From: an uncultured candidate division Zixibacteria bacterium
GTDB taxonomy: Bacteria; Zixibacteria; MSB-5A5; RBG-16-43-9
Reading direction: 5' to 3'
Assembly: GCA_963713865.1 (NCBI GenBank)
Contig: OY970208.1
Span: 2,016,001 to 2,080,000, forward strand
DNA: 64,000 nucleotides
Shown here: in pieces, positions 12,479-46,537 of the stretch
Layout: each line of letters starts with the position of its first letter
Position numbering within the stretch: position 1 is the stretch's first letter
Position numbers and translations under genes: made by a program
The notes under the pieces: generated by a model
Told to the model about the DNA's origin: nothing
The model's database searches: none
The model's input: only the letters and a program-made list of their open reading frames with translations

Positions 12479-15418
12479 TTACTGTCTACTTTTCAGTTTT
12501 CTCAATCTTTCCTTAGCATCTGCAATTTCAGGTATCCCCGGGTCAGCATTCTTCCATATATCCAGAAACTCCTCATATTTCTCAATCGCCTTTTTGTTCC
12601 AGCCAGATTTCTCATAAGCCAAGCCTAAAAGATAATAAGCTTTTACTGCCCTGTAAGACCACACTCTGTCATCGTCATATCTTGAGAGTGCCTTTTCTAA
12701 TTCAGATACTGCCTCGTCAAGTCTGCCTCTTTTCAAGTAAATTTCCGCCAGATGAGAACGGAGATCAAAAGATGGAGTTGGTGAGTCCTTATACGCCCTT
12801 TCTAAATAGCTCAATGCCATGGTGGTATCTCCTTTGACTAACTCTATGTCGCTCAATGTCCACCAGTAAGAAGACATTAGCTTTGGATTCTTTTCCTCAA
12901 TATCCTTTTTCAAAGCTTTTGCTAATTCTTCAGCTTCAGCAATTTTTCCACTCTTAGTGAGAAGAAAAGCGTAACCATCCCTCCCGTACACGGGATCATT
13001 AGGTTTGGCTTTCTTGTATATTTCCATGCCCATTTCCATTTCCTTTGATGCTAAATCCATCTTTTTCTGCCTTTCATAGAGAAGAAATGCCTTATCGAAA
13101 TGTTTATAAGCATTCATGTCCCCGTCAAACTGTTCCATTCTGTCTGCTGCAATGCCATCGTCTAAAACCTTGAGGGCATCTTCGAACTTCCCCTGGTAAG
13201 AAGGAATCAATTCTAAATATACCCTTCCCATTGACCTCAAACGCTTCTCGCTGTTAGAACAAAGTGCCTGAAAACAGCTTTCAGCTTTAGTATAATCTTT
13301 CTTGAAAACATACATATCCCCCAGCATGTACTGAGACGTAAAGAAGTCGGGTTTTATCTCTAATGCTTTCTTGTAAGATTCTATCGCTTGGTCGAGCTTA
13401 CCATTCCAGGCAAATAACTCAGCTCTTGAATCGTAGGGATTTGGTTCATCCGGGGCTAATTCTATATATTTGTTTATAGCCCAGATAGATTTGTCAAAAT
13501 CTCCCATTTCATTGTAGGCATAGGCTAGAATGTTGTAAGCTAGTTTATAGAGAGGGTCTATCTGGATGGCTTTGCTGAGATAATAAACTGCTTCTTTGAA
13601 CTCGTGGAGATTATTATTATAAATTTGTCCTAATACATAAAATGCGTCTTTTTCATCAGGGTAACTTTCAACTATTTTTTTTAGTCCGTTTATTGCTTGA
13701 GAATAATCACCTGTTATATAGGCTCCAAAACCTTTAATATAAAGTTTTTCCTTCTGGGTTATCTTATCTGTGTATTTCGCAGCTTTGGTAATGAACTCTC
13801 TTGCTGCCCTATCATCACCTGCATATCGATTAATTACTGCCAGCCAATAATATGCCATAGCAAAGGTAGAATCAAACTCTAGAGCTTTCTTGAGACTTTT
13901 CTCTGCCTCTGCAAAGTAAAGTTTGTAACCGTAATCAACGCCTTCGAGAAAGTAACGATATGCTTCTTGCGAATGGGTCGTAACCTTAGCTACAGACGGT
14001 TCCTTCTCCTGCTGGGCTGAGACAGGAAGAGTAAAACCTTTTTTGATTTCAACGGTTAGCCTATCAACTAAAGAGAAGACATCTTGCTCCTTTTCTCCCG
14101 TGATTCGTTGAGATGCCTTTATTTCACCAGTTCCGACATCGACTAACTGGGTTGTTATTTCGATTCTTGGCTTAACTTGGAGTATACTCCCCAGAAGCAT
14201 CCATTTAACCCCGGCTTTTGTGGCAACCTGGGATGCCATATTCTTATCTATCCTCTTTTCTCCCTCTCTTCCCAAAAGCTTGAGAATATCGTATAATCTC
14301 TGGCTGGATACTACCTTGAGATATTGCGACTCGGATAAACCAGTAATTAACAGATTAGTAACAATTTCACCAAGCTTTTGCTTGTCCTCCGGATCAGCCA
14401 GATTATCAAAATACATTACTGCTAAGGAGTTCTCTTTAGCTACTGCACCTTTTTCCGGAGCTACCTCAAATTTGAAAGGTTTAAGAATCAAGAAAAGTAA
14501 AATCAGGATGAAAACCACTGAGGCAGGAATAACAATCGGCAAAAGTTTCTTCTTAGGCTTAGGAGTAATCACTTCTTTTGGAATTTGACCGGTTTTCATG
14601 TATTCCAAATTTTTCTTTTCGTGCCTTAAATCTGCAAGTAAATCATCTATATGCTGGTATCTTTCCTCTTTATCTTTGATTAATGCTTTGAAGACGATCC
14701 GCTCTAATTCAGAGGAAACCTGATTATTGTATCTGGCTACAGGCTGAGGCTCTTCGTTGATTATCGAGTAAACAATAGCGGCCTGATGTTCTCCTCCAAA
14801 AGGTAAATTTTTGGTCAAAAGCTCATACAATACTACACCAAAAGAGAAGATATCGCTTCTTGAATCGACTTCCTCACCTTGAGCCTGCTCAGGTGACATA
14901 TAAGCTAAAGTCCCTAAGGTTGAGCGTGTCTTGGTCAGCTTGGTTGCTCCTTTCAGCTTTGCCAGTCCAAAATCCATTATCTTAACCTGACCTCGAGGAG
15001 TAAGCATTATGTTATCCGACTTGATATCCCGGTGCACAATCCCCTTCTCATGAGCCATAGCTAACCCTTCACATATCTGTATCCCGATATCCAGAACCTT
15101 TCTTATGGAGAGAGTTTCTTTCTCAATTACCTGCTTCAAAGTCCTGCCCTCACAGTATTCCATAACTATAAACATCTGCCCTTCAAATTCATCGATCTCG
15201 TAAATGGTAGTGATGTTAGGATGATTTAAAGCTGAAGCGGCTTTGGCTTCGTGGATAAACCTTTCCTTCTCAACAGCATCAGCGGTCAGATGTTGGGGTA
15301 AAAACTTCAAAGCGACCAGTCGATCCAGTTTGGTGTCTTGGGTTTTATAAACTATTCCCATTCCACCTTCCCCTAACTTTTCCAGAATTCTATAATGTGA
15401 GATCGTCCGTCCAATCAT
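12479..15418 (-). CDS. Ser/Thr protein kinase-TM-TolB/FlgO-like-TPR protein (K1)
   Basis: GEGGMG, ALK, HRDIKSDN, DFG, SPEQ; TM LPIVIPASVVFILILLFLIL; SLAVMYFDN domain; many TPRs. Confidence 0.92.
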   Translation of the reverse strand: MIGRTISHYRILEKLGEGGMGIVYKTQDTKLDRLVALKFLPQHLTADAVEKERFIHEAKAASALNHPNITTIYEIDEFEGQMFIVMEYCEGRTLKQVIEKETLSIRKVLDIGIQICEGLAMAHEKGIVHRDIKSDNIMLTPRGQVKIMDFGLAKLKGATKLTKTRSTLGTLAYMSPEQAQGEEVDSRSDIFSFGVVLYELLTKNLPFGGEHQAAIVYSIINEEPQPVARYNNQVSSELERIVFKALIKDKEERYQHIDDLLADLRHEKKNLEYMKTGQIPKEVITPKPKKKLLPIVIPASVVFILILLFLILKPFKFEVAPEKGAVAKENSLAVMYFDNLADPEDKQKLGEIVTNLLITGLSESQYLKVVSSQRLYDILKLLGREGEKRIDKNMASQVATKAGVKWMLLGSILQVKPRIEITTQLVDVGTGEIKASQRITGEKEQDVFSLVDRLTVEIKKGFTLPVSAQQEKEPSVAKVTTHSQEAYRYFLEGVDYGYKLYFAEAEKSLKKALEFDSTFAMAYYWLAVINRYAGDDRAAREFITKAAKYTDKITQKEKLYIKGFGAYITGDYSQAINGLKKIVESYPDEKDAFYVLGQIYNNNLHEFKEAVYYLSKAIQIDPLYKLAYNILAYAYNEMGDFDKSIWAINKYIELAPDEPNPYDSRAELFAWNGKLDQAIESYKKALEIKPDFFTSQYMLGDMYVFKKDYTKAESCFQALCSNSEKRLRSMGRVYLELIPSYQGKFEDALKVLDDGIAADRMEQFDGDMNAYKHFDKAFLLYERQKKMDLASKEMEMGMEIYKKAKPNDPVYGRDGYAFLLTKSGKIAEAEELAKALKKDIEEKNPKLMSSYWWTLSDIELVKGDTTMALSYLERAYKDSPTPSFDLRSHLAEIYLKRGRLDEAVSELEKALSRYDDDRVWSYRAVKAYYLLGLAYEKSGWNKKAIEKYEEFLDIWKNADPGIPEIADAKERLRKLKSRQ

Positions 15419-15567
15419 AGATCACACCTCCCGCTTTCGCTTCGCTTCAGCGGGATCCTCAAATTCGCAACCACTCGTTGAAAAAAGACTCGTGGGCGAA
15501 TTTGGGACATCCCACCCTCACCCAGCTTTTCTAAAATCTTGTAATGAGATATTGTTTTTCCAATCAT
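15415..15567 (-). pseudogene. 5'-only kinase copy (MIGKTISHYKILEKLGEGGM) interrupted by a 79-nt double-hairpin insert; 50-codon leader ORF whose stop overlaps the K1 ATG
   Basis: Reverse complement of 15508-15567 encodes the first 20 kinase residues. Insert at 15429-15507. GGT GTG ATC TAT (GVIY) then runs into the K1 ATG. Confidence 0.8.
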
Positions 15568-15611
15568 GATATTATTGTTTCATTTGTTCATTGTTCCATT
15601 GATTCAATCCC

Positions 15612-18188
15612 TTATCCTTTCGGCTTCAAAAGCTCCTTAAACGGCGGGTAATCCCACAACGATTCAAAGTCAACATCTGTATGGAGATCGATACTATAGG
15701 AGCGTCCTTGCAAAAAGCTCTCCTTCAGAAGGGCTATCGCCTGATCCTTGTCCCCCAGAATTGCTGCAATACATGCACGGTTATAAGTATACCCACCAAA
15801 AAGATATGGCTTCTTCAGGTTTTTGAGCCATTCAGAGACTCTCAGCGCTTTTTCTTTATCCCCTTGCCGAGCTGCTATAAGACCAAGCCACCCTTGATAA
15901 TCAATGTTGTCAGGCGAATCCTTGGCAAGTTCCTCGAAAATGCTCTTTGCCTCCTCCCATCGCCGAGCATCATACAGCGTAAGGGCATAGGCGTTGCGAA
16001 GGAGGGAATCCATCTCTTCAGCCGGCCTGCTTTTATACCATTGAACTGACTGGTCAAAAATCGTCATGGCAGCGTCTGCATACCCGTGAGCGCGCAATTC
16101 CTCTCCAGCACCTCTCATGGTACCTCCGGGAGTACCCGTGGCAATCCCGGGTTTGGTAAGGGTCAGACTTTCTTCAATAAGTTTTTTGACCTCCTCGATC
16201 TTCCCCAGGGCAGCAAGTGCCCGGATTTCGTAGTTCAAGGCACTCAGGGATGTCGGGAATCTTTTGCGAGCCTGTTTTGCGATTTCGAGTTCCTTTTTGT
16301 GCTCCCCCAGAAGGTGGTATGAGGCAGTGAAGAAACCCCAATAGAAGAGCCAGACTTGTTCCTGGTCAGCCATCTTGAACGCCTCAACGGCTTCTTTGGG
16401 GCGATTTACCAGAAATGCGTCCAAGCCCCACTCATAAGCATAGAAAGGTCCAGGCGCGATCTTGGCTGCTTCTCGCACAGCATTCAAGCATTTCATCCTA
16501 TCACCTGAAACCCAACCGCTTTCCTCGTCCAACCCCAATTGCTGAAGAGGAGTGAGTTGAGCACGGCGCAGATTAAGAAATCGCACCAGGGAATCTGCCT
16601 GTGCCAATTGCCCGAGGTTTATGTATGCAGCACACGCGTCGGTCAACGGAAAAAAGAACGATGTGTCTATAGTGTAAGCCCGCTTGAAGTATTCGAGTGC
16701 TCCCTGATAGTCGAACTGTTTTGAAAAGAGGTCCAATCCCTGGACGTACTGTTGGTATGCATCGTACTTAGGAGGCTTTGATACCTGCGTAGCCCATCCT
16801 TCCAGCCGTTTATCCAGCACAAGGGCAAGGGCGCCCAGCACCCGCTGGCGCACAGATTCAACTCCGTCCATGGTTTTTCTGGCTTCAGAGGTTACCGGTT
16901 CAATCGCCGTAAGAAGCTTTTCATTAGCATCCATTACCTTCGCTTGAAACTCGATAGTATCACCTAACTTGTAATAGGAACCAATCACAATCATGCTTGC
17001 ACCAGTTGCCTTGGCAATTGAGCGGACACTCTTGAGTTTTTCAAGTTCAGGCACTTTTTCTGGCGGAACAACTTCAGCTAAACCTGTCTGCAGAAGACTC
17101 TGGGTAGTCCAATCTGCAATCATCCGTCCAAGAGAATTAAGCGACGGGTCTCCGGTTTGGTTCTGGAACGGCACGACAACCACCCGCTTGGCAACCTGTT
17201 TTGAGACTTTAAATGGCTGCAGGAAAAAAATCACAACAACTGACCCGATAACCAAAACCGCTAATCCAACCAGCCATATCAGGTTTTTTCGGAAAAAGCT
17301 CGGTTGAGAAATGATTTTTGGCTCTGTCGGCAACGGTTGACTCACAATTGCTTCCGGCACACGGTGCACGCGTGAAGTATCTTTCTTCAGCCTGCGCAGC
17401 TCGATGACCACGTCCGCCATCGATTGGTATCTATCGTCCGGAGTCTTCTCCAGCAAACGATTGAGAATGTGAATTAGGTCTGAGGATGTATCCGGCAGAT
17501 ATTTCTGAATCGGTTCAGGGTCCTCATTCACAATCGAATACATCATCGCCGCCTCGTGCTCTCCCTTAAAGGGCAATTGTCCGGTGAGCATCTCGTAAAG
17601 GACAATGCCAAAGGAGAAAATATCAGACCTGGCATCTATCTCACCTCCCTGGATCTGTTCAGGTGCCATATAGGCAAGGGTCCCAACTGTGCTGGAGGTT
17701 TTCGTAAGTTTAAGAGAACCTTTTAGCTTTGCCAGGCCGAAATCCATCACCTTGACCTGGTTCTTGGAGTTGATCATTATATTATCAGATTTAATATCCC
17801 GATGGACTATTCCCTGACTGTGTGCCTCCTTTAACGCCTCCCCAATCTGGATGGCATAGGTTATTGCTTCGTTCACTGAAAGAGCTTTGCTCTCAAATTT
17901 CTTTCTTAAAGTCACACCGTCCACATATTCCATAACGATGAACTGCTGTCCTTTTTCCTCCTGAATATCATGGATTACACAGACGTTAGGATGATTTAAA
18001 GCTGAGGCTGATTTCGCCTCCTGTAAAAAGCGGGCTTTTTCAGCTTCGCTGGCTACGAGTTGAGGCGGGAGAAACTTCAGGGCTAAAAGCCGGTCAAGCT
18101 TAATATCCTGGGCTTTATAAACCACCCCCATCCCACCTTCACCCAGCTTCTCCAGGATTTTGTAATGTGAGATAGTTTTACCGATCAT
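15612..18188 (-). CDS. Ser/Thr protein kinase-TM-TolB-like-TPR protein (K2)
   Basis: Intact kinase motifs (HRDIKSDN, DFG, APEQ); TM LIWLVGLAVLVIGSVVVIFFL; VVVVPFQNQTGD domain; TPRs. Confidence 0.92.
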   Translation of the reverse strand: MIGKTISHYKILEKLGEGGMGVVYKAQDIKLDRLLALKFLPPQLVASEAEKARFLQEAKSASALNHPNVCVIHDIQEEKGQQFIVMEYVDGVTLRKKFESKALSVNEAITYAIQIGEALKEAHSQGIVHRDIKSDNIMINSKNQVKVMDFGLAKLKGSLKLTKTSSTVGTLAYMAPEQIQGGEIDARSDIFSFGIVLYEMLTGQLPFKGEHEAAMMYSIVNEDPEPIQKYLPDTSSDLIHILNRLLEKTPDDRYQSMADVVIELRRLKKDTSRVHRVPEAIVSQPLPTEPKIISQPSFFRKNLIWLVGLAVLVIGSVVVIFFLQPFKVSKQVAKRVVVVPFQNQTGDPSLNSLGRMIADWTTQSLLQTGLAEVVPPEKVPELEKLKSVRSIAKATGASMIVIGSYYKLGDTIEFQAKVMDANEKLLTAIEPVTSEARKTMDGVESVRQRVLGALALVLDKRLEGWATQVSKPPKYDAYQQYVQGLDLFSKQFDYQGALEYFKRAYTIDTSFFFPLTDACAAYINLGQLAQADSLVRFLNLRRAQLTPLQQLGLDEESGWVSGDRMKCLNAVREAAKIAPGPFYAYEWGLDAFLVNRPKEAVEAFKMADQEQVWLFYWGFFTASYHLLGEHKKELEIAKQARKRFPTSLSALNYEIRALAALGKIEEVKKLIEESLTLTKPGIATGTPGGTMRGAGEELRAHGYADAAMTIFDQSVQWYKSRPAEEMDSLLRNAYALTLYDARRWEEAKSIFEELAKDSPDNIDYQGWLGLIAARQGDKEKALRVSEWLKNLKKPYLFGGYTYNRACIAAILGDKDQAIALLKESFLQGRSYSIDLHTDVDFESLWDYPPFKELLKPKG

Positions 18189-18193
18189 CTTTT

Positions 18194-20788
18194 TTATATC
18201 TTTCGATTAATCAATTCTTCAAACGCTGGATAACCAGATAGATTCTCGAACGACGGCTCCAATTTAATATAAGCAGGTGTCATAAAATTGTTCTTCACCA
18301 AGAATTCGAGCATACGCACTGCCTCTTCTTTTTGTCCTGTAGCCGAATAAACGTAACTCAGGCTCCAAACCGCTCCAGACCACTCCACAGTTAGAAGGGA
18401 ATTCCCTAAACTTTTCTTCACTCTCTCTGCCTGCTCCAGGGCTTTTTTGGATTCTCCTTTTAATGAATAGGCTAAGGCTATTCTTAACCGACTATAATAT
18501 TCATTGGGAAGACCTTCAAATTCTTTGATTAAAGGTAGATTGAACTGAATGCAGGAATCCAAGTATATTTCCGCCTGTTTTTTATTTCCTCTCCTAAGCT
18601 CTGAGTAACTCAATTCTACAAACCATTCGCCAGCTGGGTTTTGTCGGCGTAATTCATTTGAATAATAAAAAACGCTGTCGGCCTCGCCTGACACCATAAA
18701 AATCCAATTCAAGGTCCCTAAAGAGGAGGTGCGCTGTGGGTCGATATTCAGAGATTTATGAGCCATTCTTTTTGCTTCTTCTAATTCACCCCAGACCAGG
18801 TGGCAACCACTCATGGCATCCCATATTGATGCATCGGTAGACTGAATCTCCAATCCTTTGTTAAAATATTCCTCCACCTTTTCTTTCTTCCCCCAGGCTG
18901 AGTACAAGCTTATAAACTTAGAGAATAAGGTAGCTTGGGTTGGCTTTACCTCTAACGCTCTCATCAAAGCACTCTCAGCTTTTGGATATTGACCAATGCT
19001 ATACCACCAGTATCCCAAAGTCCCCCAGCCTTCTCCATAATTAGGATTGGCTTTGACCGCTTCTTCTGCCTCTTGTATGCCCTTTTCGGTTTTCCCCTCG
19101 ACCATGTATAGCCTGGAGAGAGAGCGATGAGCCTCGGCCAAATCTGGGTCGAGAGCCAATGCTTTTAAGCTGGCTTTTTCAGCTTTTTCCAGCCAGGACT
19201 TCTTGGGGTCAACAGAAAACATCACATAGCTCGAATAGCAATCCGACAATCCAGCATAAGCTAAAGCAAAATTAGAATCAGCTTCCAATGCTTTTTCAAA
19301 CATCCTGGTTGACAGTTCCAGGCCTTCTTTAGTTGTACTTCCTCCTCCGAAATAATATTCCCGTCCTTGCAGATAGTAGTTGTAAGCTTGAACATTCAGG
19401 GTCGGTTTTTTTTCAATCCTTTCTACTTCAACTGGAGCAAGGGCAACTTTTAGTGCCTGGGCAACTGACTTAGCTACATCTGCCTGAATGGCAAATAGAT
19501 CCTCCATCTGTCTATCGTAGCTAGCTGCCCAAACGTGGAATCCATCACTGGCTTTAATCAGCTGACAAGTAATTCTGACCTTATCTCTGTATTTTTGGAC
19601 TGAACCTTCCATTACATACTTAACTCTTAACTTATCAGCTATCTCCTTAAGATTAATTGGTTTATTTTTGAATTGTTCAATGTCACTTCGGGAAGCAATC
19701 AGTAAGCCAGCGATTTGGGATAGCTGGGTGATAATATCTTCAGTCATTCCAGACGCAAAATAGTCATCTTCTTTATTTTCAGAGAGATTCCGCAAATACA
19801 GAACTGCTATGGAAGGTTTGCCAGCAGTAACTGGTTCTTTTTGTTTGAGAAATACTAAGTAAACTATAATAAGAATTAAAATCGCCATTAATCCTGCCAT
19901 CAATGGAAAAGCTCTCTTTTTGACTGGCTTGGGAGAATCAGTGGGTTTAGGTGTTACTCCTGTTTTGACATAATCCAAACTTTTCTTTTCCCTCCTCAAA
20001 TCTGCTAACAATTCATCAGCATGTTGATACCTTTCTTCTTTATCCTTTGCCAGTGCCTTGAAAACCATATCTTCTAACTTGGCGGAAACCTGATTGTTAA
20101 AACGGGCTACTGGCTGAGGTTCTTCATTAATTACCGAGTAAACAATAGCAGCTTGATGCTCTCCTCCAAAAGGAAGCTTCCCGGTCAGAAGCTCATATAA
20201 AACAACCCCAAATGAGAAGATATCACTTCTCTGGTCAACTTCCTCACCTTGAGCTTGCTCTGGTGACATATAGGCAAGAGTCCCTAAAGTTGAACGAGTC
20301 TTGGTCAGTTTGGTTGCTCCTTTCAGCTTTGCCAAACCGAAATCCATTATCTTCACCTGCCCTCGAGGAGTAAGCATTATATTGTCAGATTTGATATCTC
20401 GGTGCACAATCCCCTTCTCGTGAGCTAAAGCTAAACCTTCACATATCTGAATCCCGATATCCAAAACCTTTTTTATAGAAATGGTCTCTTTTTCAATTAT
20501 CTGCTTCAAAGTCTTACCCTCGCAATATTCCATCACTATAAACATCTGCCCTTCGAATTCATCGATCTCATAAATGGTGGTGATGTTCGTGTGATTTAAA
20601 GCTGAAGCTGCTTTGGCTTCGTGGATAAACCTTTCCTTCTCCTCAGACTCAGAGGTCAGATGCGGAGGTAAGAACTTTAAAGCCACCAGACGGTCTAATT
20701 TAGTGTCCTGGGCTTTATAGACCACACCCATTCCACCCTCACCCAGCTTCTCGACGATTTTATAATGAGAAATTATTTTACCGATCAT
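18194..20788 (-). CDS. Ser/Thr protein kinase-TM-TolB-like-TPR protein (K3)
   Basis: Kinase motifs; TM; PSIAVLYLRNLS...YFASGMTEDII; TPRs. Confidence 0.92.
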   Translation of the reverse strand: MIGKIISHYKIVEKLGEGGMGVVYKAQDTKLDRLVALKFLPPHLTSESEEKERFIHEAKAASALNHTNITTIYEIDEFEGQMFIVMEYCEGKTLKQIIEKETISIKKVLDIGIQICEGLALAHEKGIVHRDIKSDNIMLTPRGQVKIMDFGLAKLKGATKLTKTRSTLGTLAYMSPEQAQGEEVDQRSDIFSFGVVLYELLTGKLPFGGEHQAAIVYSVINEEPQPVARFNNQVSAKLEDMVFKALAKDKEERYQHADELLADLRREKKSLDYVKTGVTPKPTDSPKPVKKRAFPLMAGLMAILILIIVYLVFLKQKEPVTAGKPSIAVLYLRNLSENKEDDYFASGMTEDIITQLSQIAGLLIASRSDIEQFKNKPINLKEIADKLRVKYVMEGSVQKYRDKVRITCQLIKASDGFHVWAASYDRQMEDLFAIQADVAKSVAQALKVALAPVEVERIEKKPTLNVQAYNYYLQGREYYFGGGSTTKEGLELSTRMFEKALEADSNFALAYAGLSDCYSSYVMFSVDPKKSWLEKAEKASLKALALDPDLAEAHRSLSRLYMVEGKTEKGIQEAEEAVKANPNYGEGWGTLGYWWYSIGQYPKAESALMRALEVKPTQATLFSKFISLYSAWGKKEKVEEYFNKGLEIQSTDASIWDAMSGCHLVWGELEEAKRMAHKSLNIDPQRTSSLGTLNWIFMVSGEADSVFYYSNELRRQNPAGEWFVELSYSELRRGNKKQAEIYLDSCIQFNLPLIKEFEGLPNEYYSRLRIALAYSLKGESKKALEQAERVKKSLGNSLLTVEWSGAVWSLSYVYSATGQKEEAVRMLEFLVKNNFMTPAYIKLEPSFENLSGYPAFEELINRKI

Positions 20789-20796
20789 TCCTGAAC

Positions 20797-23406
20797 CTAT
20801 TTACTCCTTGCCAAAAGTTTCTGAAAGCGGGGTTGGTTACGTAAAGGAGCCCAGGTTGGGTCGATACGAAGATATGGAATTGAGATCTCCGAAGGGATCG
20901 ACAAAAGATACTCAAGCTGGTCTATGGCAGAGTCGTAATCACTAACCATAACATATATCTGTGCCAAATTCTGGACATAGCCAGGACCGTCGAGTGCATC
21001 CTTAGGTACAGGGAGTAATTCCACCCCTTTTTTCCCTTCCCGGATTGCCTCTTCTTTGCGTCCAAGCCCGGCATAAGCGATGCCGAGATAACTGTGGAAG
21101 AACGCCTCGCCTGGCCTTGACTGTATCCTGTTTTCGAGGATGATTCTAGCAGAGTCACTATAGACCAGTTTCAGCTGTTGTCGATTCAGCAAACCATATA
21201 TTTTAGCTTTAGTCAAAAAGTAAGATATTGTATCATTACGACCACCCGCATCCACGTATGCGCAGACCCCAGGTAGCCGACCTAATGCTGTCTGATAGTC
21301 TCCATCGAGAACATCCAACCATACCAAATCAGGCACAAGTAGCGACACATCTGCCTTTCCGGTCGCCTCATGGAAAACTTTCCTCGCTTTTTTTGTGTCA
21401 CCCTCCGAGATTTGATATAGCCAGGCCTTGCGACTATAAGCTACTGGCCAATCAGGAGCCAGAGAGATGACTCTGTCCAAGTAGTACTCTGCCTCGGCAT
21501 ATTTGCGCATAAGTCGGTAGGTAGTGGCAACCTCATCTGCCTTATCGTAGGCTCGCGGGTCAAGCTCTGCTGCCTTCTTGAGGTTAGTGACCGCCTGCTC
21601 GAATTTCCCCTGACGCCTTTGAACAAAACTGATAGCCGCAAGGAGGTCGCTGTTATTCGGCTGACCTTTCTGGGCAATTGCAAACTGCTCCAGGGCACGG
21701 TCATAGTCCCAGCTTCCCCAGTAGTAATAATAGCCCAGGGCCAAGTGCGCTTCAGGCAGATCCGGCTTCAGCTTCAGGGCTTTGTCCACAGCTTCTTTGG
21801 CTTTATTAAGGCGCTCGTCAGTATTGTCCCAATAAAACCAATACAGCCAAGAATGAGCCCATGAAAGTCTGGCATAGGCTAACGCAAAAGCCGGGTCTAA
21901 CTTCACCACTTTCTCATACATCTCTATAGCTATGCGGACATCTTTCTCCCCCTTACCATAAATAAAATAATCCTCACCGCGCAGATAGTATTCGTAAGCC
22001 TCAAGGTTCTCGGTCGGCTTGGCTGCTATGTACCGTTGCTCAGCTTCGAGAAGCGTGATGTTCAATGCAGAAGCTACCTTCTCTGCTATGTCAGCTTGAA
22101 GGGCAAAAACCTGCTCCAGAACACGGTCATATGTCTCGGCCCAAACATGGGTACCGTCTTTGACTCTGATTAGCTGGGGATTTATTCTTACCCGATTGTT
22201 AACTTCAGACTTATCCCATAGAATTGTCCCTTCTAAGACATACTGGACCCCCAATTCTCTGCCTATTTGCTGAACAGTTTTCTTGGTATCTTTGTATTGG
22301 AGAACACTGGTGCGGGAGATAACACCCAAACCGCTGACTTTGGCCAACTGGGTCGTTATCTCGTCGGTGATGCCATCAGCAAAATACTCCTGCTCTGGCG
22401 CTCCTAAATTTTCAAAGGGTAAAACCGCAAGCATCTTTATTCCGGATTCCGGCTCCTTTTTACTCAATAGGGTAAAGTATCCTACAATCAAAATAAGAAC
22501 CGCCAGTCCAGCCAAAACTAAGGGTAACATTTTCTTCTTGAGCGGCTTTTGTGTCTCTACGGGCTGAGCCAGCGTGGCTGTCTTCACATATTCCAAACTC
22601 TTCTTCTCGTGCCTTAAATCTGCCAACAATTCATCAGCATGTTGATACCTTTCCTCTCTGTCTTTTGCCAGTGCTTTGAAAACTATCCGCTCCAGTTCTG
22701 CTGAAACTTTGTTGTTATATCTGGCTACTTGCTGTGGCTGTTCATTGATTATCGAGAAAATAATAGCGGCCTGATGTTCACCCCCAAAGGGCAACTTTCC
22801 AGTTAAAAGCTCATATAAGACAACGCCAAAGGAAAAAATATCGCTTCTTGAATCTACTTCCTCGCCCTGAGCTTGCTCTGGTGACATATAAGCTAAAGTG
22901 CCCAAGGTTGAGCGAGTTTTGGTCAGCTTGGTTGCTCCCTTTAGCTTTGCCAATCCGAAATCCATTATCTTCACCTGACCCCGAGGAGTGAGCATTATGT
23001 TATCCGATTTGATATCCCTGTGCACAATCCCTTTCTCATGAGCCATAGCCAAACCTTCACATACCTGTATCCCAATATCCAGAACCTTCTTTATAGAGAG
23101 AGCTTCTTTCTCAATCACTTGCTTTAAAGTCCTGCCCTCACAATATTCCATCACTATAAACATCTGACCATCAAATTCATCAATCTCGTGAATAGTAGTG
23201 ATATTGGTATGACTTAAAGCTGATGCGGCTTTGGCTTCGTGAATGAATCTTTCCTTCTCAACAGCATCGGCGGTCAGATGTTGGGGTAGAAACTTCAAAG
23301 CCACTATTCTATCCAGCTTAGTGTCCTGGGCTTTGTAAACTATTCCCATACCACCTTCACCCAGCTTTTCGAGAATCTTATAATGCGAAATGGTTTTGCC
23401 AATCAT
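20797..23406 (-). CDS. Ser/Thr protein kinase-TM-TolB-like-TPR protein (K4)
   Basis: Kinase motifs; TM; LAVLPFENLG...YFADGITDEI; TPRs; C-terminal DPTWAPLR. Confidence 0.92.
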   Translation of the reverse strand: MIGKTISHYKILEKLGEGGMGIVYKAQDTKLDRIVALKFLPQHLTADAVEKERFIHEAKAASALSHTNITTIHEIDEFDGQMFIVMEYCEGRTLKQVIEKEALSIKKVLDIGIQVCEGLAMAHEKGIVHRDIKSDNIMLTPRGQVKIMDFGLAKLKGATKLTKTRSTLGTLAYMSPEQAQGEEVDSRSDIFSFGVVLYELLTGKLPFGGEHQAAIIFSIINEQPQQVARYNNKVSAELERIVFKALAKDREERYQHADELLADLRHEKKSLEYVKTATLAQPVETQKPLKKKMLPLVLAGLAVLILIVGYFTLLSKKEPESGIKMLAVLPFENLGAPEQEYFADGITDEITTQLAKVSGLGVISRTSVLQYKDTKKTVQQIGRELGVQYVLEGTILWDKSEVNNRVRINPQLIRVKDGTHVWAETYDRVLEQVFALQADIAEKVASALNITLLEAEQRYIAAKPTENLEAYEYYLRGEDYFIYGKGEKDVRIAIEMYEKVVKLDPAFALAYARLSWAHSWLYWFYWDNTDERLNKAKEAVDKALKLKPDLPEAHLALGYYYYWGSWDYDRALEQFAIAQKGQPNNSDLLAAISFVQRRQGKFEQAVTNLKKAAELDPRAYDKADEVATTYRLMRKYAEAEYYLDRVISLAPDWPVAYSRKAWLYQISEGDTKKARKVFHEATGKADVSLLVPDLVWLDVLDGDYQTALGRLPGVCAYVDAGGRNDTISYFLTKAKIYGLLNRQQLKLVYSDSARIILENRIQSRPGEAFFHSYLGIAYAGLGRKEEAIREGKKGVELLPVPKDALDGPGYVQNLAQIYVMVSDYDSAIDQLEYLLSIPSEISIPYLRIDPTWAPLRNQPRFQKLLARSK

Positions 23407-25728
23407 TCTTCCAATCCTATCTTTTTAATTAGTGCAACCACTCGTGGGTCTTTGCTATAGTCTTCCCATCCCGGGAAAGTTCGTATGAATAGCAGCATAA
23501 GAGACCTATATTCAGAAGCTTTTTCCAAACATTCGATAACCTTATCATGCTCACCTAAAGCAAGATATACTACGGCAAAGAGATAAGGATCTACATACCG
23601 ATGTTTTGATTCCTCGATTAAATCGCTAAGAATTTTGCGTGCCTCATTTTCTTTACCAGAACGCTGCATAAGCATAAGCCAGCCAACTAAGAGAAATACT
23701 GTTCTTTAAGGCAATTGATTTTTGATATTGATTTATCGCCTCGTTATACATTTTTTTACACAAATAACAATTACCAAGCATATCATACCCGAATGCTAAA
23801 GTGCTGTCGATTTTTAATATTTCATTGGCTAAGGTTATCGCACTATCACACTGTCCGGAATAGAGAAAAACATATACCATACTCGTGCTTATGTCAAAAG
23901 AAAGCGGGTCAAGCTCTCTGGCTTTCTTTGCTTTCCTTATTGCTTCATCAAACCGTTTCATTGCTGACAGGTAGTAAGCATACCAGGCATAAGCAGTTGC
24001 ATAATTTGGATTAAGCTCGATGGCTCGTTTGTAGTTTTCCTCAGCTCCCCTCCAATCCCATTCGTAACAAAATTTGACATCAGCCATAAGCACATACGCA
24101 TCCGCCAGCGTTTTGTCAAGGCTCAGTGCTTTCCTGGCTAATGAATCTACTTTCGGCCAGGCTTCCTTTGGTGGCATCGTAGCCAAAGCAAGATAATCAT
24201 ATCCTTTTGCCATACCGGTATAGGCTAAGGCATAGTCTGGGTCTTTCTGAATGGCCTCTTCAAAGTATTTGAATCCTTTTTCAACATCTGCGGGTGATAA
24301 TTTGTTGACGAAGTACATCCCTTTAAGATACAGCTCATGAGCTTCAGGATTGACTGTGCGGTAAGCTGCTAATTTTTGCTGTTCTTCAGGTGTTACAGTG
24401 ATTTTTATTTCACGTGCAATTGCCTGTGCAACTTCGCTCTGGAGTATCAGGATATCTTTAAATTTTCTGGTGAAATCACTTGCCCACAGGTGTTTCTCCG
24501 GTTTTGCCTTGATAAGTTGCGCCGTAATTCTGACATCGTCCTGCACTCGCTGAACCGACCCTTCTACAACCGCATCCACGTTTAAATCATGAGCTATCTC
24601 CGGCAACGATTTCTCTGTTTTCTTGAAATGCATGACCGAAGTCCGGGAGATAACCCGGAGTGCTTTGATTTTCGATAATTCCGAGATAAGCGCTTCAGTA
24701 ATTCCATCGGAGAAATACTCCTGCTCAGGATCAGCGGAGAGATTTTGGAAAGGCAGAACAGCTATTGAATTGATCGGCACTTCCCGTGAAGCGAAGAAAT
24801 AGAGTTTACTGAGGATAAGAATTGCGATTAGGATTGTAACACTGACATATACATAAATCGGTACCTTCATTAAACGCTTTGGTTTTCTCCTTTCTTGTAT
24901 TGGCGTCGTCGTTTCAAGTCTCTTCTTGAGATATTTAAAATCAGCCATCATCTCGTCAACATGCTGATAGCGTTCATCCTTCCCTTTTGACAATGCCTTA
25001 TCAATGATTTTTTGTAGTCCCTCTGGAACATTCGCTTTATACCTTGCCAGAGGTTCTGGGGTCTCATTTAAAATAGAATAGATTATCGCAGCTTCATGTT
25101 CCCCCTTGAAGGGAAGTTGTCCTGTAATCATCTCATACAACACCACTCCAAACGAGAAAATGTCTGAACGCTGGTCAACTTCCATCCCTTGAGCTTGCTC
25201 CGGGGACATATAGGCCAATGTGCCAACTGTAGAACCTGTCCTGGTTAGTTTGCTTACTCCTCGGAGCTTAGCCAAACCAAAATCCATGATCTTAACCTGA
25301 CCATCTTCTGTTAGCATGATGTTGTCAGATTTTATATCCCGATGGACTATCTCCTTCTTGTGGGCAGCATTTAGTCCCTCTGCTATCTGAATGGATATGT
25401 TCAAAATTTCTTCTATAGAAAAACTTCTCTGTTTAAGTAATTCTTTTATAGATCTACCTTCAATATAAGCCATGGAGATAAAGCATTCCCCTTCGACTTC
25501 ATCGATTTCATAAATGGTAGCTATATTGGGGTGGTCTAATGCAGATGCAGCTTTGGCTTCATGCTCAAATCTCATTTTGGCTTCACTATCGCACAAAAGA
25601 TGTTTTGACAAAAACTTTAGAGCTACTATCCGGTTCAACTTGGTGTCCTGGGCTTTATAAACTATTCCCATTCCACCTTCCCCTAACTTTTCCAGAATTC
25701 TATAATGTGAGATGTTTTTACCAATCAT
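23403..25728 (-). CDS. Ser/Thr protein kinase-TM-TolB-like-TPR protein (K5), +1 frameshift near 23664
   Basis: ORFs 23653..25728 and 23403..23675 join as AYA-RSGKENEARKIL when one base is removed. The C-terminus is homologous to the K6 end. Confidence 0.88.
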
Positions 25729-25731
25729 TGC

Positions 25732-25875
25732 TTATCCTTTATAGCCGCATGTATGAACCACATGGTTCATACCGCAGACTTTAGTCTGCGTCATTTTATC
25801 GCAAGCTGGATTCCTTCGAAATGGATCCGTAGGACTTGCGGTTACCTTATAATAAGATATCGTTTTACCAATCAT
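25732..25875 (-). pseudogene. 5'-only kinase copy (MIGKTISYYK) followed by REP doublet; 47-codon leader ORF ending just before the K5 start
   Basis: ATG ATT GGT AAA ACG ATA TCT TAT TAT AAG, then REP sequence, TAA GCA and the K5 ATG in the same frame. Confidence 0.7.
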
Positions 25876-25960: not shown

Positions 25961-28195
25961 TCATTTTTCAGATCTTATCTTTTTAAGCAGTACCGTGAAC
26001 CTCGGGTCTGAGCGCAGGCTATCCATAAAGGGAGCGGTTTTGAGAGTAGCCATCCAGGACTCTCGCTCATCATAAGCTTTATCCAGGTATTCAAATGCAT
26101 GATCCTTCTTACCCAGTCCACCATAGATTAGCGCTTTGTATAAAGACGAAACATACCTTTTTTTTGATAGTTCGTTCAATTGATCAAGCATTTTTAGCGC
26201 TTCATCTGTTTGTCCCGACAGAGCATAGGCTAATCCAAGATGCCCTATTCCGATTGGGCTGTTCATGGATAGCGCCACGAACCTTTTCAAAGATGCAATC
26301 GCTTCTTTCCACATTTCCTTGCCAACAAGGTTAAATCCCTGAAAAAGATAGGCTAAGGAGAAGTTCGGGTCCATCTCGAGCGTTCTTCGATATTGATCCA
26401 ATGCTTCATCATACTGGCGTGCCCAATACAATCCAAGTCCTACAACTGTGCTTATCATCAGGGAAAGGGGATCCAACTCAAGAGCCCGTTTCAATAATAT
26501 CGATGCTTCATCTAATCGTTCCATTGGTGCTAAAGACACCGCGTACCATTCGTACCCTGTCGCATAGTTTGGATTGAGATTAAGGGCACGCTTGAATTCC
26601 TCTTCAGCACCAATCCAGTCCCAGTCATAGAACGTTCGAATCCAACCCATTGAGGTATGAGCCTCGGCTAACTTGTCATCAATCTCCAAAGCTTTCTCCG
26701 CGGCAGTCCTTGCTCGCGGATAGGCCTCTTTTGGAGGAAGCCAACCAAAATGCCCTAACAAGATATAACAGTCAGCCATTCCTACATAGGCCAGTGCGTA
26801 GAGTGGATCCTTTTCAATGGCTTGTTGAAAGAACTCAATCCCCTTTTGTAGTCCTCCTTCATAGCGTCTGTTCCAGAAATAACGGCCCTTCAAATACAGG
26901 TTATAAGCTTCCTGGTTTTCAGTAAACCGCTTCACCAGTTTCGCTTTCTCTTCTTTTAAAAGCTTGACCTTTAATCTGTCCACAATTGCCAGAGAGATTT
27001 CATCCTGGATTGCAAAGATGTCTTCTATGTTTCTATCGTATTTATCTGACCAGAGATGATAGCCGTCAGCAACGTTAATAAGCTGGGCGGTAATGCGGAC
27101 CCTGTTTCCCGCTTTCCGTACACTCCCTTCAAGTAAGTTCTCAATATTCAGCTGCCTTCCAATCTCGCGGACATCTATTTCTTTACCTCTAAATGAAAAA
27201 GACGAAGTTCGGGCAACTACTCGCAAACCTTCCAACTGCGTGAGCGCATTGATGATTTCCTCTGCCATACCATCACAGAAGTACTCTTGCTCTTTATCTG
27301 CGCTTAAATTGGTAAATGGCAACACTGCGATGGAAGGCTGAATCTTTTTTGTATAAGATTGATCTGTCGAGATAGTTAATTCCAGCTCTTTTGAAAGTTT
27401 CCTCAAATCAGTTCTTAAGTCATCCATATTCTGGTAACGCACCTCCCGGTTTTTCTCCAGTGCCTTATCCACTATTTTCTGCAACCCTTCCGGAATATTG
27501 GTTTTATACCTTGCCAATGGTTCAGGTGTTTCATTTAAAATAGAATAAATTATCGCCGCAGTGTGCTCACCCTTGAAAGGAAGTTGTCCGGTTATCATCT
27601 CATACAAAACCACTCCAAAAGAGAAAATATCTGAACGATAGTCAACTTCTATCCCTTGAGCTTGTTCCGGTGACATATAAGCTAAAGTTCCCAGGGTTAA
27701 GCCAATAGTGGTCAGCTTGGTAGCACCTTTAAGCTTTGCCAAGCCGAAATCCATTATCTTTACTAAACCTTCATTAGTAAGCATTATGTTATCTGACTTA
27801 ATATCTCTATGAACAATACCTTTCTTGTGAGCCGCGTTTAATCCTTCTCCAGTCTGTATGGCTATCTCTAAAACTTCCTTTAAAGAAAAACTCTTTTCTT
27901 TCAAAAGCTCTTTGAGAGATTTCCCCTCTATGTATTCCATAGCAATAAAGCATTCCCCTTCTTTCTCATCTATTTCGTAAATGGTGGTGATATTTGGATG
28001 ATTCAAAGCAGATGCGGCTTTGGCTTCGTGAATGAATCTTTCCTTCTTCTCAAATTCAGAGGTCAGGTGCGGAGGTAAAAACTTTAAAGCCACCAAACGG
28101 TCCAGCTTGGTATCCTGGGCTTTGTAAACTATTCCCATTCCACCTTCCCCTAACTTTTCCAGAATTCTATAATGTGAGATGTTTTTACCAATCAT
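25961..28195 (-). CDS. Ser/Thr protein kinase-TolB-like-TPR protein without TM helix (K6)
   Basis: Kinase motifs followed directly by PSIAVLPFTNLS...YFCDGMAEEII with no hydrophobic segment; TPRs. Confidence 0.92.
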   Translation of the reverse strand: MIGKNISHYRILEKLGEGGMGIVYKAQDTKLDRLVALKFLPPHLTSEFEKKERFIHEAKAASALNHPNITTIYEIDEKEGECFIAMEYIEGKSLKELLKEKSFSLKEVLEIAIQTGEGLNAAHKKGIVHRDIKSDNIMLTNEGLVKIMDFGLAKLKGATKLTTIGLTLGTLAYMSPEQAQGIEVDYRSDIFSFGVVLYEMITGQLPFKGEHTAAIIYSILNETPEPLARYKTNIPEGLQKIVDKALEKNREVRYQNMDDLRTDLRKLSKELELTISTDQSYTKKIQPSIAVLPFTNLSADKEQEYFCDGMAEEIINALTQLEGLRVVARTSSFSFRGKEIDVREIGRQLNIENLLEGSVRKAGNRVRITAQLINVADGYHLWSDKYDRNIEDIFAIQDEISLAIVDRLKVKLLKEEKAKLVKRFTENQEAYNLYLKGRYFWNRRYEGGLQKGIEFFQQAIEKDPLYALAYVGMADCYILLGHFGWLPPKEAYPRARTAAEKALEIDDKLAEAHTSMGWIRTFYDWDWIGAEEEFKRALNLNPNYATGYEWYAVSLAPMERLDEASILLKRALELDPLSLMISTVVGLGLYWARQYDEALDQYRRTLEMDPNFSLAYLFQGFNLVGKEMWKEAIASLKRFVALSMNSPIGIGHLGLAYALSGQTDEALKMLDQLNELSKKRYVSSLYKALIYGGLGKKDHAFEYLDKAYDERESWMATLKTAPFMDSLRSDPRFTVLLKKIRSEK

Positions 28196-28321
28196 TGCTT
28201 ATCCTTTATAGCCGCAGGTATGAACCACATAATTCATACCTCAGACTTTAGTCTGCGCTACTTTATCGCATGCTTGAGCTTGTGGCTTCCCTATAATATT
28301 AGAAATTATTCTAACAATCAT
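28196..28321 (-). repeat. Leader homologous to 25729-25875: decayed kinase start plus REP doublet plus SD
   Basis: TGCTTATCCTTTATAGCCGCA.GTATGAACCACAT..TTCATACC.CAGACTTTAGTCTGCG is shared with 25729-25790. ATGATTGTTAGAATAATTTCT at 28321 is a degenerate kinase start. Confidence 0.75.
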
Positions 28322-46327: not shown

Positions 46328-46438
46328 GGAGAGATGTCCGAGTCCCGCCTTCGACGGGACAAGCTGGTCTAAGGAGCACGCCTGGTCATCCCGCCAAAAG
46401 CGGGAGATCCTGCTGAAAGCGGTGAAGAGAGCGTGTAG
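46328..46438 (+). pseudogene. 5' partial tRNA-Ser copy with hairpin inserts in the D-loop (46343-46363) and anticodon (46386-46427)
   Basis: Removing the two inserts gives GGAGAGATGTCCGAGCTGGTCTAAGGAGCACGCCTGGAGAGCGTGTAG, identical to the start of the tRNA at 46446. Confidence 0.85.
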
Positions 46439-46445
46439 GAGATAC

Positions 46446-46537
46446 GGAGAGATGTCCGAGCTGGTCTAAGGAGCACGCCTGGAGAGCGTGTAGCCCTTAA
46501 AAAGGGCTCCTGGGTTCGAATCCCAGTCTCTCCGCCA
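46446..46537 (+). tRNA. tRNA-Ser(GGA)
   Basis: GGAGAGA/TCTCTCC acceptor stem, CACGC-CTGGAGA-GCGTG anticodon arm, long variable arm, GGTTCGAATCC, GCCA. Confidence 0.95.

Follow-up and report, generated by a model that had tools for sequence, protein, structure and literature searches.

A hairpin leader carrying a kinase gene start, and its candidate role in translational coupling, in one order of Zixibacteria

The leader upstream of the kinase gene K1

We analyzed a stretch of 64,000 nucleotides (the window, G000:C1:2016001-2080000) from an uncultured Zixibacteria bacterium whose genome, G000, is a single contig of 2.72 Mb with 40% G+C. The window carries an array of six tandem paralogues encoding protein kinases with TPR domains (Pkinase+TPR), named K1 to K6 and identified from the list of open reading frames (ORFs) and from Pfam. 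All six are on the minus strand, as are the genes of the window at this locus. We focus on K1 (12479-15418, minus strand), an intact gene of 979 amino acids (aa) with Pkinase and TPR domains, and on the interval that separates it from the upstream paralogue K2 (15612-18188, minus strand, 858 aa). Within this interval, starting 44 nt after the stop codon of K2, a short ORF repeats the beginning of a kinase gene, runs through two hairpins and ends on the start codon of K1. We refer to this arrangement as the stub leader and to the intact gene that follows it as the restart gene.

The stub itself consists of kinase codons 1 to 20 (MIGKTISHYKILEKLGEGGM; 15567-15508, minus strand like all features of the leader), with its ATG at 15567-15565. 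It was found genome-wide by nhmmer with a DNA profile of 15 kinase 5' ends (E 4.3e-11), and it differs from the nearest paralogue start at eight positions, all of them synonymous. The next 79 nt (15507-15429), as read from the sequence, form an insert made of two hairpins. Hairpin 1 (TCCCAAATTCGC...GCGAATTTGAGGA; 15507-15456) spans 52 nt, and hairpin 2 (TCCCGCTGAAGCGAAGCGAAAGCGGGA; 15455-15429), the conserved core of the module, has a 7-bp stem around GAA-GCGAAGC-GAA. The insert is followed by ten nucleotides, called B (GGTGTGATCT; 15428-15419), that resemble kinase codons 21 to 24 and read GVIY when the next AT is included. This extended version (GGTGTGATCTAT; 15428-15417) borrows its final AT from the ATG of K1 (15418-15416) and equals GGTGTGGTCTAT at 11 of 12 positions; exact GGTGTGGTCTAT occupies codons 21 to 24 in 7 of the 15 full paralogue starts that we compared. 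The junction of hairpin 2 and B spells a Shine-Dalgarno (SD) sequence, GGAGGTG (15431-15425), to which the hairpin contributes GGA and the kinase-like codons GGTG, the first three SD bases sitting in the 3' arm of hairpin 2. The K1 ATG lies 6 nt beyond GGAGGTG, or 8 nt beyond its GGAGG core. Taken as a whole, the upstream ORF (15567-15415) has 50 codons and a TGA (15417-15415) that overlaps the K1 start codon as ATGA. A sequence-only reading of the window had described the 20 kinase codons, the two-hairpin insert, the GVIY codons overlapping the K1 start, the SD at the junction and the 50-codon ORF overlapping an intact K1, and our analysis of the sequence bears it out on each of these points.

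The spacer between the K2 stop and the stub (15568-15611, minus strand) is A-rich and without an SD-like motif, and it is homologous to the spacer that precedes an uninterrupted kinase start at genome position 999502. A comparison with orthologous loci lacking the insert had been suggested as a check. Behind the K2 orthologue of genus g3 there are hairpin repeats but no kinase gene, which makes these loci uninformative, and the useful comparison is the uninterrupted paralogous junction at G000:C1:999194-999561, which in our search of relatives aligns to positions 2-393 of the query, with an alignment ending at the insert.

Both hairpins together fold at -35.5 kcal/mol (z -3.25), a value that none of 200 shuffles reached. 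Hairpin 2 alone is predicted to fold at -14.5 kcal/mol, with the GGA of GGAGGUG paired. The organism uses SD-dependent initiation, since the 3' end of its 16S rRNA carries the anti-SD CCTCC and GGAGG precedes 247 of 1705 ORF starts, compared with 34 of 1705 for a control window placed inside genes. A consensus scan of 15300-15750, K2-K1 interval included, found no terminator-like or promoter-like site. The arrangement of an intrinsic-terminator attenuator, a hairpin followed by a U run, is not seen either: hairpin 2 is directly followed by GGUGUGAUCUAUG, and the number of terminator-like sites is zero. Scanning 15200-15800 with Rfam 15 gave only three matches (E 0.87-9.7), to eukaryotic models of small nucleolar RNAs and long non-coding RNAs. 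The loop of hairpin 2 (15429-15455) holds GCGAAGC, an unusually stable DNA mini-hairpin, with GAA on each side. A hammerhead-like reading of CUGAAG...GAAA in hairpin 2 was set aside, as the core did not fit by eye and Rfam gave no ribozyme match.

Distribution of the leader in genomes and metagenomes

In a search of 40 relatives, a genome of the same genus (G001) showed five loci of the same layout, and further loci were present in other genera and families. Of 285 genomes of the phylum, 10 have the exact pattern of hairpin 2 plus SD; the ten belong to one Zixibacteria order, and none of the 251 genomes outside it has the pattern. Leaving G000 aside, the genomes with the exact pattern are two of 8 in family f1, two of 20 in f2, the only one in f3, and all four in f4. 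All 14 genome matches to the pattern are located at kinase stubs. A covariance model of hairpin 2, SD and start codon retrieved the same 10 genomes out of the 34 in the order, along with a single decayed copy. The scan of metagenomes gave 38 matches, of which 24 are stub-leader loci and 14 are unrelated GC-rich coding DNA. Genomes and metagenomes together provide 32 distinct loci, 31 of them parsed and one (L103) read by eye; a single locus (G021:C18) has no restart gene.

The leader exists in two forms. The short form, found in families f3 and f4, consists of the stub, CCTG or TCTG, hairpin 2, GGTGTGGTCT and the ATG. The long form, found in f1 and f2 and in this window, has hairpin 1 in place of the four bases. 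Each form is confined to its two families in the genomes examined, and hairpin 1 is a later addition to an older form with hairpin 2 only. The DNA upstream of the stub varies from locus to locus: it is the 3' end of K2 and the spacer in this window, and a promoter-like region in G001:C27 and G013:C70. The leader is an old module common to four families of one order of uncultured sediment bacteria, and neither the remnant of a one-off decay nor a recent local insertion.

Conservation of the hairpins and of the reading frame

Hairpin 2 and the next 10 nt (B), 37 nt in all, are 93.1% identical between families (11 loci, 39 between-family pairs). In the same comparison, third codon positions are identical in 51.8% of cases in the stub and 47.4% in the restart gene. 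Hairpin 1 is conserved as a structure: across nine long-form leaders, four base pairs have changed on both sides, and 98.7% of the cells are paired, against 36-41% when the pairing is slid. None of 500 shuffles reached its covariation score. Three of the four covarying pairs change together as two haplotypes, which may reflect one event, and the fourth is distributed independently of them.

The reading frame is also preserved. An open upstream ORF ending in ATGA is found in 25 of the 31 loci with a restart gene, while three ORFs stop 6-7 nt before the ATG and three stop early. The 25 ORFs fall into four lengths (34, 43, 50 and 67 aa), from which it follows that the frame has survived three or more separate additional insertions, none of which brought in a stop codon. 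They are hairpin 1 (+48 nt), a nested hairpin at the locus G015:C2 (+27 nt) and, at the metagenome locus L103, another nested pair. The hairpin of G015:C2 is of the CCCGCT/AGCGGG type and lies within hairpin 2; further nested hairpins are also present in L093. The part of the peptide encoded by the hairpins varies freely (R/Q, S/G, E/K/V, V/A).

Some loci depart from this picture. One GAAGC unit of the hairpin 2 loop is missing in G001:C27, G001:C6, G021:C18 and the metagenome locus L110, which shifts the frame of the upstream ORF. In G021:C18, the locus that has no restart gene, B (there coding for GVV...) leads without a break to a kinase body. The insert of 80 nt puts this body in another frame than the stub, and the body contains stop codons. 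This locus is hence a pseudogene, and since the body is out of frame and interrupted by stops where the restart is lacking, an insert of this kind would be harmful by itself. The layout of G021:C18 would suit a stage that preceded the gain of a restart, and just as well the later loss of the restart copy.

A candidate translationally coupled upstream ORF

On balance, and by a modest distance only, we think it probable that the stub leader is a translationally coupled upstream ORF whose translation unwinds an SD-occluding hairpin, that it originated in the insertion of a hairpin, and that it is now a cassette of hairpin, SD and replacement 5' end moving among paralogues. The leader would then probably control the amount of kinase that is made. 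K2, the stub and K1 would be on one transcript. Ribosomes would start at the stub AUG, translate the 50 codons, unwinding hairpins 1 and 2 as they go, and terminate at the UGA of AUGA. K1 would then be started at the AUG of the same AUGA with the help of the GGAGGUG 6 nt upstream, either by reinitiation or by fresh initiation on the newly exposed SD. When the upstream ORF is not translated, the stable hairpin 2 would keep the first half of the SD paired. Observed are the anatomy of the leader and its conservation, the covariation in the hairpins, the retained frame and overlap, and the mosaic make-up of the genes. We infer that the three lie on one transcript, that ribosomes do translate the stub ORF and that K1 is coupled to it, as well as any regulatory input.

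A review (PMC12548453) gives two models of coupling, RNA unfolding and reinitiation or scanning, and states that coupling is most efficient at small distances between stop and start. The geometry of the stub ORF, in which a ribosome would open both hairpins and stop on the K1 start, matches both. Co-oriented ORFs with overlapping stop and start codons are found in G000 and in 25 of the 31 restart loci, and the predicted hairpin 2 would be an inhibitory structure at the downstream ribosome-binding site (RBS). Translational coupling had been put forward as a possibility by the sequence-only reading, and the open upstream ORFs of these 25 loci now favour it.

Origin and spread of the leader

The leader may have arisen when a small hairpin element, with the CCCGCT/AGCGGG stem of a repeat family of this genome, entered a kinase paralogue after its codon 20. 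What was left of that paralogue would then have been lost up to the ATG of the next gene, at an AT microhomology. Hairpins of this family are nested in the leaders of relatives, and the genome abounds in hairpin repeats and has eight Y1 transposase matches. An illegitimate deletion reaching the start of the next gene is suggested by the junction TCT|ATG, which shares AT. The restart junction arose once, since all loci share it.

The subsequent history seems to involve recombination. The first 60 nt of K1 (A'; 15418-15359, minus strand) are nearly invariant, synonymous sites included, in four related loci from at least three genera, with 58, 55, 58 and 57 identical positions. The four loci (L047, L056, L086 and L100) are from G005, from G001:C27 and from two metagenomes. 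Identity falls after about nt 57-75 and the gene bodies differ, and the stubs of these loci differ by 15-20%. K1 itself has a mosaic structure, being identical to K5 over nt 16-75 and closest to K3 and K4 beyond about nt 90. Stubs and restart genes also differ at codon 10, with K in 20 of 28 stubs and R in 22 of 28 restart genes. In the simplest account, the conserved unit consists of the hairpin or hairpins, the SD and the first ~57 nt of the restart gene, which would move together. Recombination among paralogues would copy this cassette onto different kinase bodies, and at each transfer the recipient's own first 20 codons would become the upstream ORF. A constraint on the restart region at the mRNA level is another possible reason for the near-invariance of these ~57 nt.

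Two likenesses between the leader and other kinase DNA were noted. The flanks of the hairpin-1 loop (15467-15478), minus 15 nt, equal CCCACGAGTGGTTGC at 23434-23445 (minus strand), in the 3' remnant of K5 upstream of K4; as the exact part covers 12 nt and has an E of 8.7, this is probably a chance match. AATTTGAGG..TGTGA resembles the leader of a kinase at genome position 2309125. The idea that the insert is the 3' coding end of a lost kinase was dropped in view of that weak match and of the relatives, which share hairpin 1 with compensatory changes and have the same junction.

Alternative explanations

Several observations weigh against a leader maintained for its effect on translation. The module is dispensable, as 24 of the 34 genomes of the order, several of them estimated to be 95-98% complete, have no match to the covariance model. 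The stub start of G000 has no SD-like motif, and an SD-like 4-mer at -18 to -4 precedes only 15 of 31 stub starts. Hairpin repeats that act at the DNA level should covary in their palindromes too, so that the covariation is no proof of an RNA role. Gene conversion is active in the family: a G001 stub and the start of the next paralogue have 38 identical nt in a row, and K1 and K5 share 60 identical nt; the conservation statistics across loci are thus not independent samples. Some copies are decaying: G001:C6 and the metagenome locus L110 have a degenerate stub and an early stop, and at G017:C87 the stub is broken, the hairpin weak and the restart gene truncated. In the latter locus (L137; G017:C87:9745-9794 and flanks), additional hairpin repeats cut off the restart copy after its fifth codon, and a new kinase start lies ~150 nt further on, resulting in a second-generation stub.

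The leader could instead be a neutral relic that does nothing by itself: the leftover of a paralogue killed by a hairpin insertion and mostly deleted, which would persist, and turn up on several kinase subfamilies, only through ectopic gene conversion and unequal crossing-over among the 15-20 paralogues of each genome. We consider this unlikely, and still the most serious competitor of the coupled upstream ORF. Besides the visible conversion tracts, the patchy distribution (10 of 34 genomes) and the decayed copies, it is consistent with the truncation of several paralogues in this genome and with the K5 and K6 stubs of the same array, which look like plain deletion remnants. Moreover, a count by eye found ~1.8 times more amino-acid deviations from the consensus in stubs than in restart genes, including changes in the Gly loop of a kind that a kinase would not tolerate. 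However, an identity of 93% over hairpin 2 and the SD, next to ~50% at synonymous sites, requires either constraint or a recent transfer between families. The restriction of the short form to f3 and f4 and of the long form to f1 and f2 fits vertical descent, and a relic would hardly account for 25 of 31 loci in which the open frame and the ATGA have outlasted three or more additional insertions.

The stub peptide could also be the selected product, as a micro-protein or nascent chain of 34-50 aa whose first 20 residues mimic the beta1 strand and the Gly-rich loop of the kinase. Its target would be the kinases or some factor that recognises their N-terminus, or it would serve as a stalling sensor before the hairpin. 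The ratio of nonsynonymous to synonymous differences per site (pN/pS) lends this some credit, being 0.10 for stub codons 2-20 between loci (pS 0.755), close to the 0.077 of real gene starts (pS 0.826; 14 loci and 91 pairs in both cases), and 0.093 between each stub and its own restart gene (pS 0.86; 28 loci). The eight synonymous differences of the G000 stub go in the same direction. Conversion within the locus does not explain the constraint, because stubs are no closer to their own restart gene than to others: amino-acid identity is 485, against 481.4 +/- 2.5 when shuffled, and third positions give 264 against 264. Yet conversion or crossing-over inside the stub from functional paralogues would give the same statistics, the hairpin-encoded remainder changes freely at the amino-acid level, and Gly-loop replacements are tolerated in stubs. 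Given this exchange between stubs and paralogues and the excess of amino-acid deviations, Gly loop included, we keep a function of the peptide as a minority reading and find it quite improbable.

We are more doubtful still of an actively mobile hairpin, in which hairpin 2, and later hairpin 1, would resemble repetitive extragenic palindromes (REPs) and be moved by a hairpin-binding transposase or nuclease that repeatedly targets the Gly-loop-coding DNA of kinase genes, the conserved sequence being the recognition site of the enzyme. G000 does have eight matches above the cut-off to the Y1 transposase family PF01797 and many hairpin repeats adjoining GTAG/CTAC. The stem of hairpin 2, CCCGCT/AGCGGG, is also that of a family of small hairpins (CCCGCT-N4/5-AGCGGG) at 10 other sites of the genome. 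The nested hairpins of G015:C2, L103 and L093 and a tRNA-Ser stub cut by CCCGCC...GGCGGG hairpins (see below) could be further traces of such mobility. Nevertheless, independent insertions cannot produce the restart junction B|ATG common to all loci, the full hairpin 2 is single-copy in G000 and is found only at kinase stubs in the genomes searched, and no GTAG/CTAC tag flanks hairpin 1 or 2. A multi-copy mobile insert had been considered and was rejected: in the 2.72-Mb genome, the 79 nt are single-copy and match, with blastn-short, only themselves and chance pieces of 12-21 nt.

Finally, recoding as in phage T4 gene 60, with ribosomes skipping the insert to continue from stub codon 20 at GVIY, is exceedingly unlikely. 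A hairpin does follow the would-be take-off site and an SD-like GGAGG does precede the would-be landing site. However, gene 60 has matched take-off and landing codons and a long resumed ORF, whereas the codons here are unmatched (ATG vs GGT), and the frame after GVIY enters the restart gene in the wrong register and reaches a stop after 12 codons in G000. The start and the first 20 codons of the restart gene are, in addition, conserved in their own right.

Other stubs and truncated paralogues

The remaining paralogues of the array are K3 (18194-20788), K4 (20797-23406), K5 (23653-25728) and K6 (25961-28195), all Pkinase+TPR genes on the minus strand. K5 is truncated by a premature stop, and the 246 nt that separate it from the K4 start (23407-23652, minus strand) still read a TPR C-terminus ending in ...DPRVVALIKKIGLEE. 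Further shortened kinase paralogues start at genome positions 999502 (184 aa), 2310785 (37 aa) and 2299083 (628 aa).

The sequence-only reading had proposed a genome-wide search for 5' gene stubs. We searched the 350 nt upstream of the 2358 ORFs of at least 120 aa for a copy of their own start, and only K1 (score 20) and K5 (15.5) have one, the 99th percentile of the scores being 14.5. A genome-wide class of 5' stubs of protein genes does not exist here. A k-mer scan for nearby direct repeats returned mostly intragenic protein repeats and tRNA duplicates. The K5 leader (25732-25875, minus strand) starts with ten kinase-like codons (MIGKTISYYK), followed by REP-type hairpins, and reached only E 0.96 genome-wide with nhmmer. 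Its ORF has 47 codons and ends in TAA-GCA-ATG, a construct different from that of K1. The K6 leader (28196-28321, minus strand; MIVRIISNII...) is a degenerate paralogue of the K5 leader, with many replacements and an ORF broken by a TGA. Neither was present among the matches listed in the search of relatives. The earlier alternative, that stubs are ordinary deletion remnants of lost paralogues, fits these two apparently decaying stubs.

Both leaders overlap a hairpin repeat consisting of GCAGACTAAAGTCTGC followed by GGCTACC (GGTAGCC on the other strand), which has more than 20 sites in the genome and is found upstream of five kinase genes. Its copies in the window are at 25729-25845 and 28196-28290 (minus strand). 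Four copies of the repeat contain a 27-nt hairpin (TATGAACC...GGTTCATA...) between TGCGG direct repeats.

A similar arrangement had been reported at a tRNA locus of the window, and the parallel is real. At 46328-46445 (plus strand), a 5' copy of tRNA-Ser(GGA) (about nt 1-47) is cut by two CCCGCC...GGCGGG hairpins, and the intact tRNA (46446-46537) lies 7 nt further on. Among the matches listed, DNA of the tRNA-Ser stub part was found in G005, G014, G016 and G019, sometimes ~270-320 nt from the tRNA, and only the intact tRNA in G001 and G003.

Comparison with known systems and implications

The K1 leader resembles several known arrangements without being identical to any. The leaders of secM-secA and ermC are classic coupled leader ORFs with an SD-occluding hairpin. 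The K1 leader likewise has a short same-strand upstream ORF with overlapping stop and start, and the downstream SD lies inside this ORF and is partly paired in a predicted stable hairpin that the ribosome would open, as in the general models of the review PMC12548453. Unlike the classic leaders, the K1 leader copies the first 20 codons of its own gene family and keeps them at the amino-acid level, and its hairpin is nearly invariant across families.

Short GC-rich palindromes that nest in one another, and a stem shared with a 10-site family, recall REPs and other small hairpin repeats. In REPs, REP-associated tyrosine (RAYT)/Y1 transposases have a role and a conserved GTAG stands beside the palindrome. 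G000 has Y1 transposase matches, but hairpins 1 and 2 lack the GTAG/CTAC tag that other hairpins of the genome have, the loop sequence of hairpin 2 is conserved, and many dispersed copies are not seen: the insert and the hairpin 2 pattern occur once each in G000, and hairpin 2 is as a rule single-copy per genome and always at one place in the kinase 5' end.

Integrative elements carry a replacement copy of the gene end that they displace, such as the tRNA 3' ends at att sites. Here too the insertion splits its target and supplies a new intact end, leaving the gene whole and a stub at the far side. The differences are the size of the cassette (~100-150 nt), the lack of an integrase, and the nature of what is replaced, namely the 5' coding end with the SD and the start codon. 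The cassette most likely moves by homologous recombination among paralogues. Rickettsia palindromic elements and mitochondrial byp elements are palindromes within coding genes and share with the K1 insert a small size, the ability to form a hairpin and a location inside protein-coding sequence. In contrast to them, the K1 insert is neither translated into the protein nor bypassed, and the gene restarts downstream.

Literature listings and abstracts yielded nothing on leader ORFs copied from the 5' end of their own gene or on kinase leaders in Zixibacteria. The stub leader is a lineage-restricted, conserved leader and appears to be a new design within the known kinds of coupled upstream ORFs and hairpin-repeat insertions. 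Its stub ORFs of 34-50 codons look like kinase genes that have been cut short, and annotation could confuse the two.

A bolder version of the coupled upstream ORF, to which we give little credence, adds selection on the peptide to the spread of the cassette. The cassette would spread by homology among kinase paralogues, turning the start of each recipient into a coupled upstream ORF, and the peptide mimicking the kinase N-terminus would itself be selected, either for what it does as a micro-protein or as a sensor, in the form of a nascent chain, by which kinase output is set. If this were true, a spreading restart cassette of 100-150 nt with a selected peptide would represent a new class of self-installing translational regulator. 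If the leader works as a coupled upstream ORF, with or without a selected peptide, it shows how a disruptive hairpin insertion can turn regulatory, the cassette bringing its own RBS, start codon and replacement N-terminal codons, so that the interrupted gene stays whole and its displaced start is recycled as a coupled upstream ORF. The stub leader would then be a testable case of a cis-regulatory leader born of selfish hairpin DNA and spread through a family of paralogous sensor kinases in an uncultured phylum.

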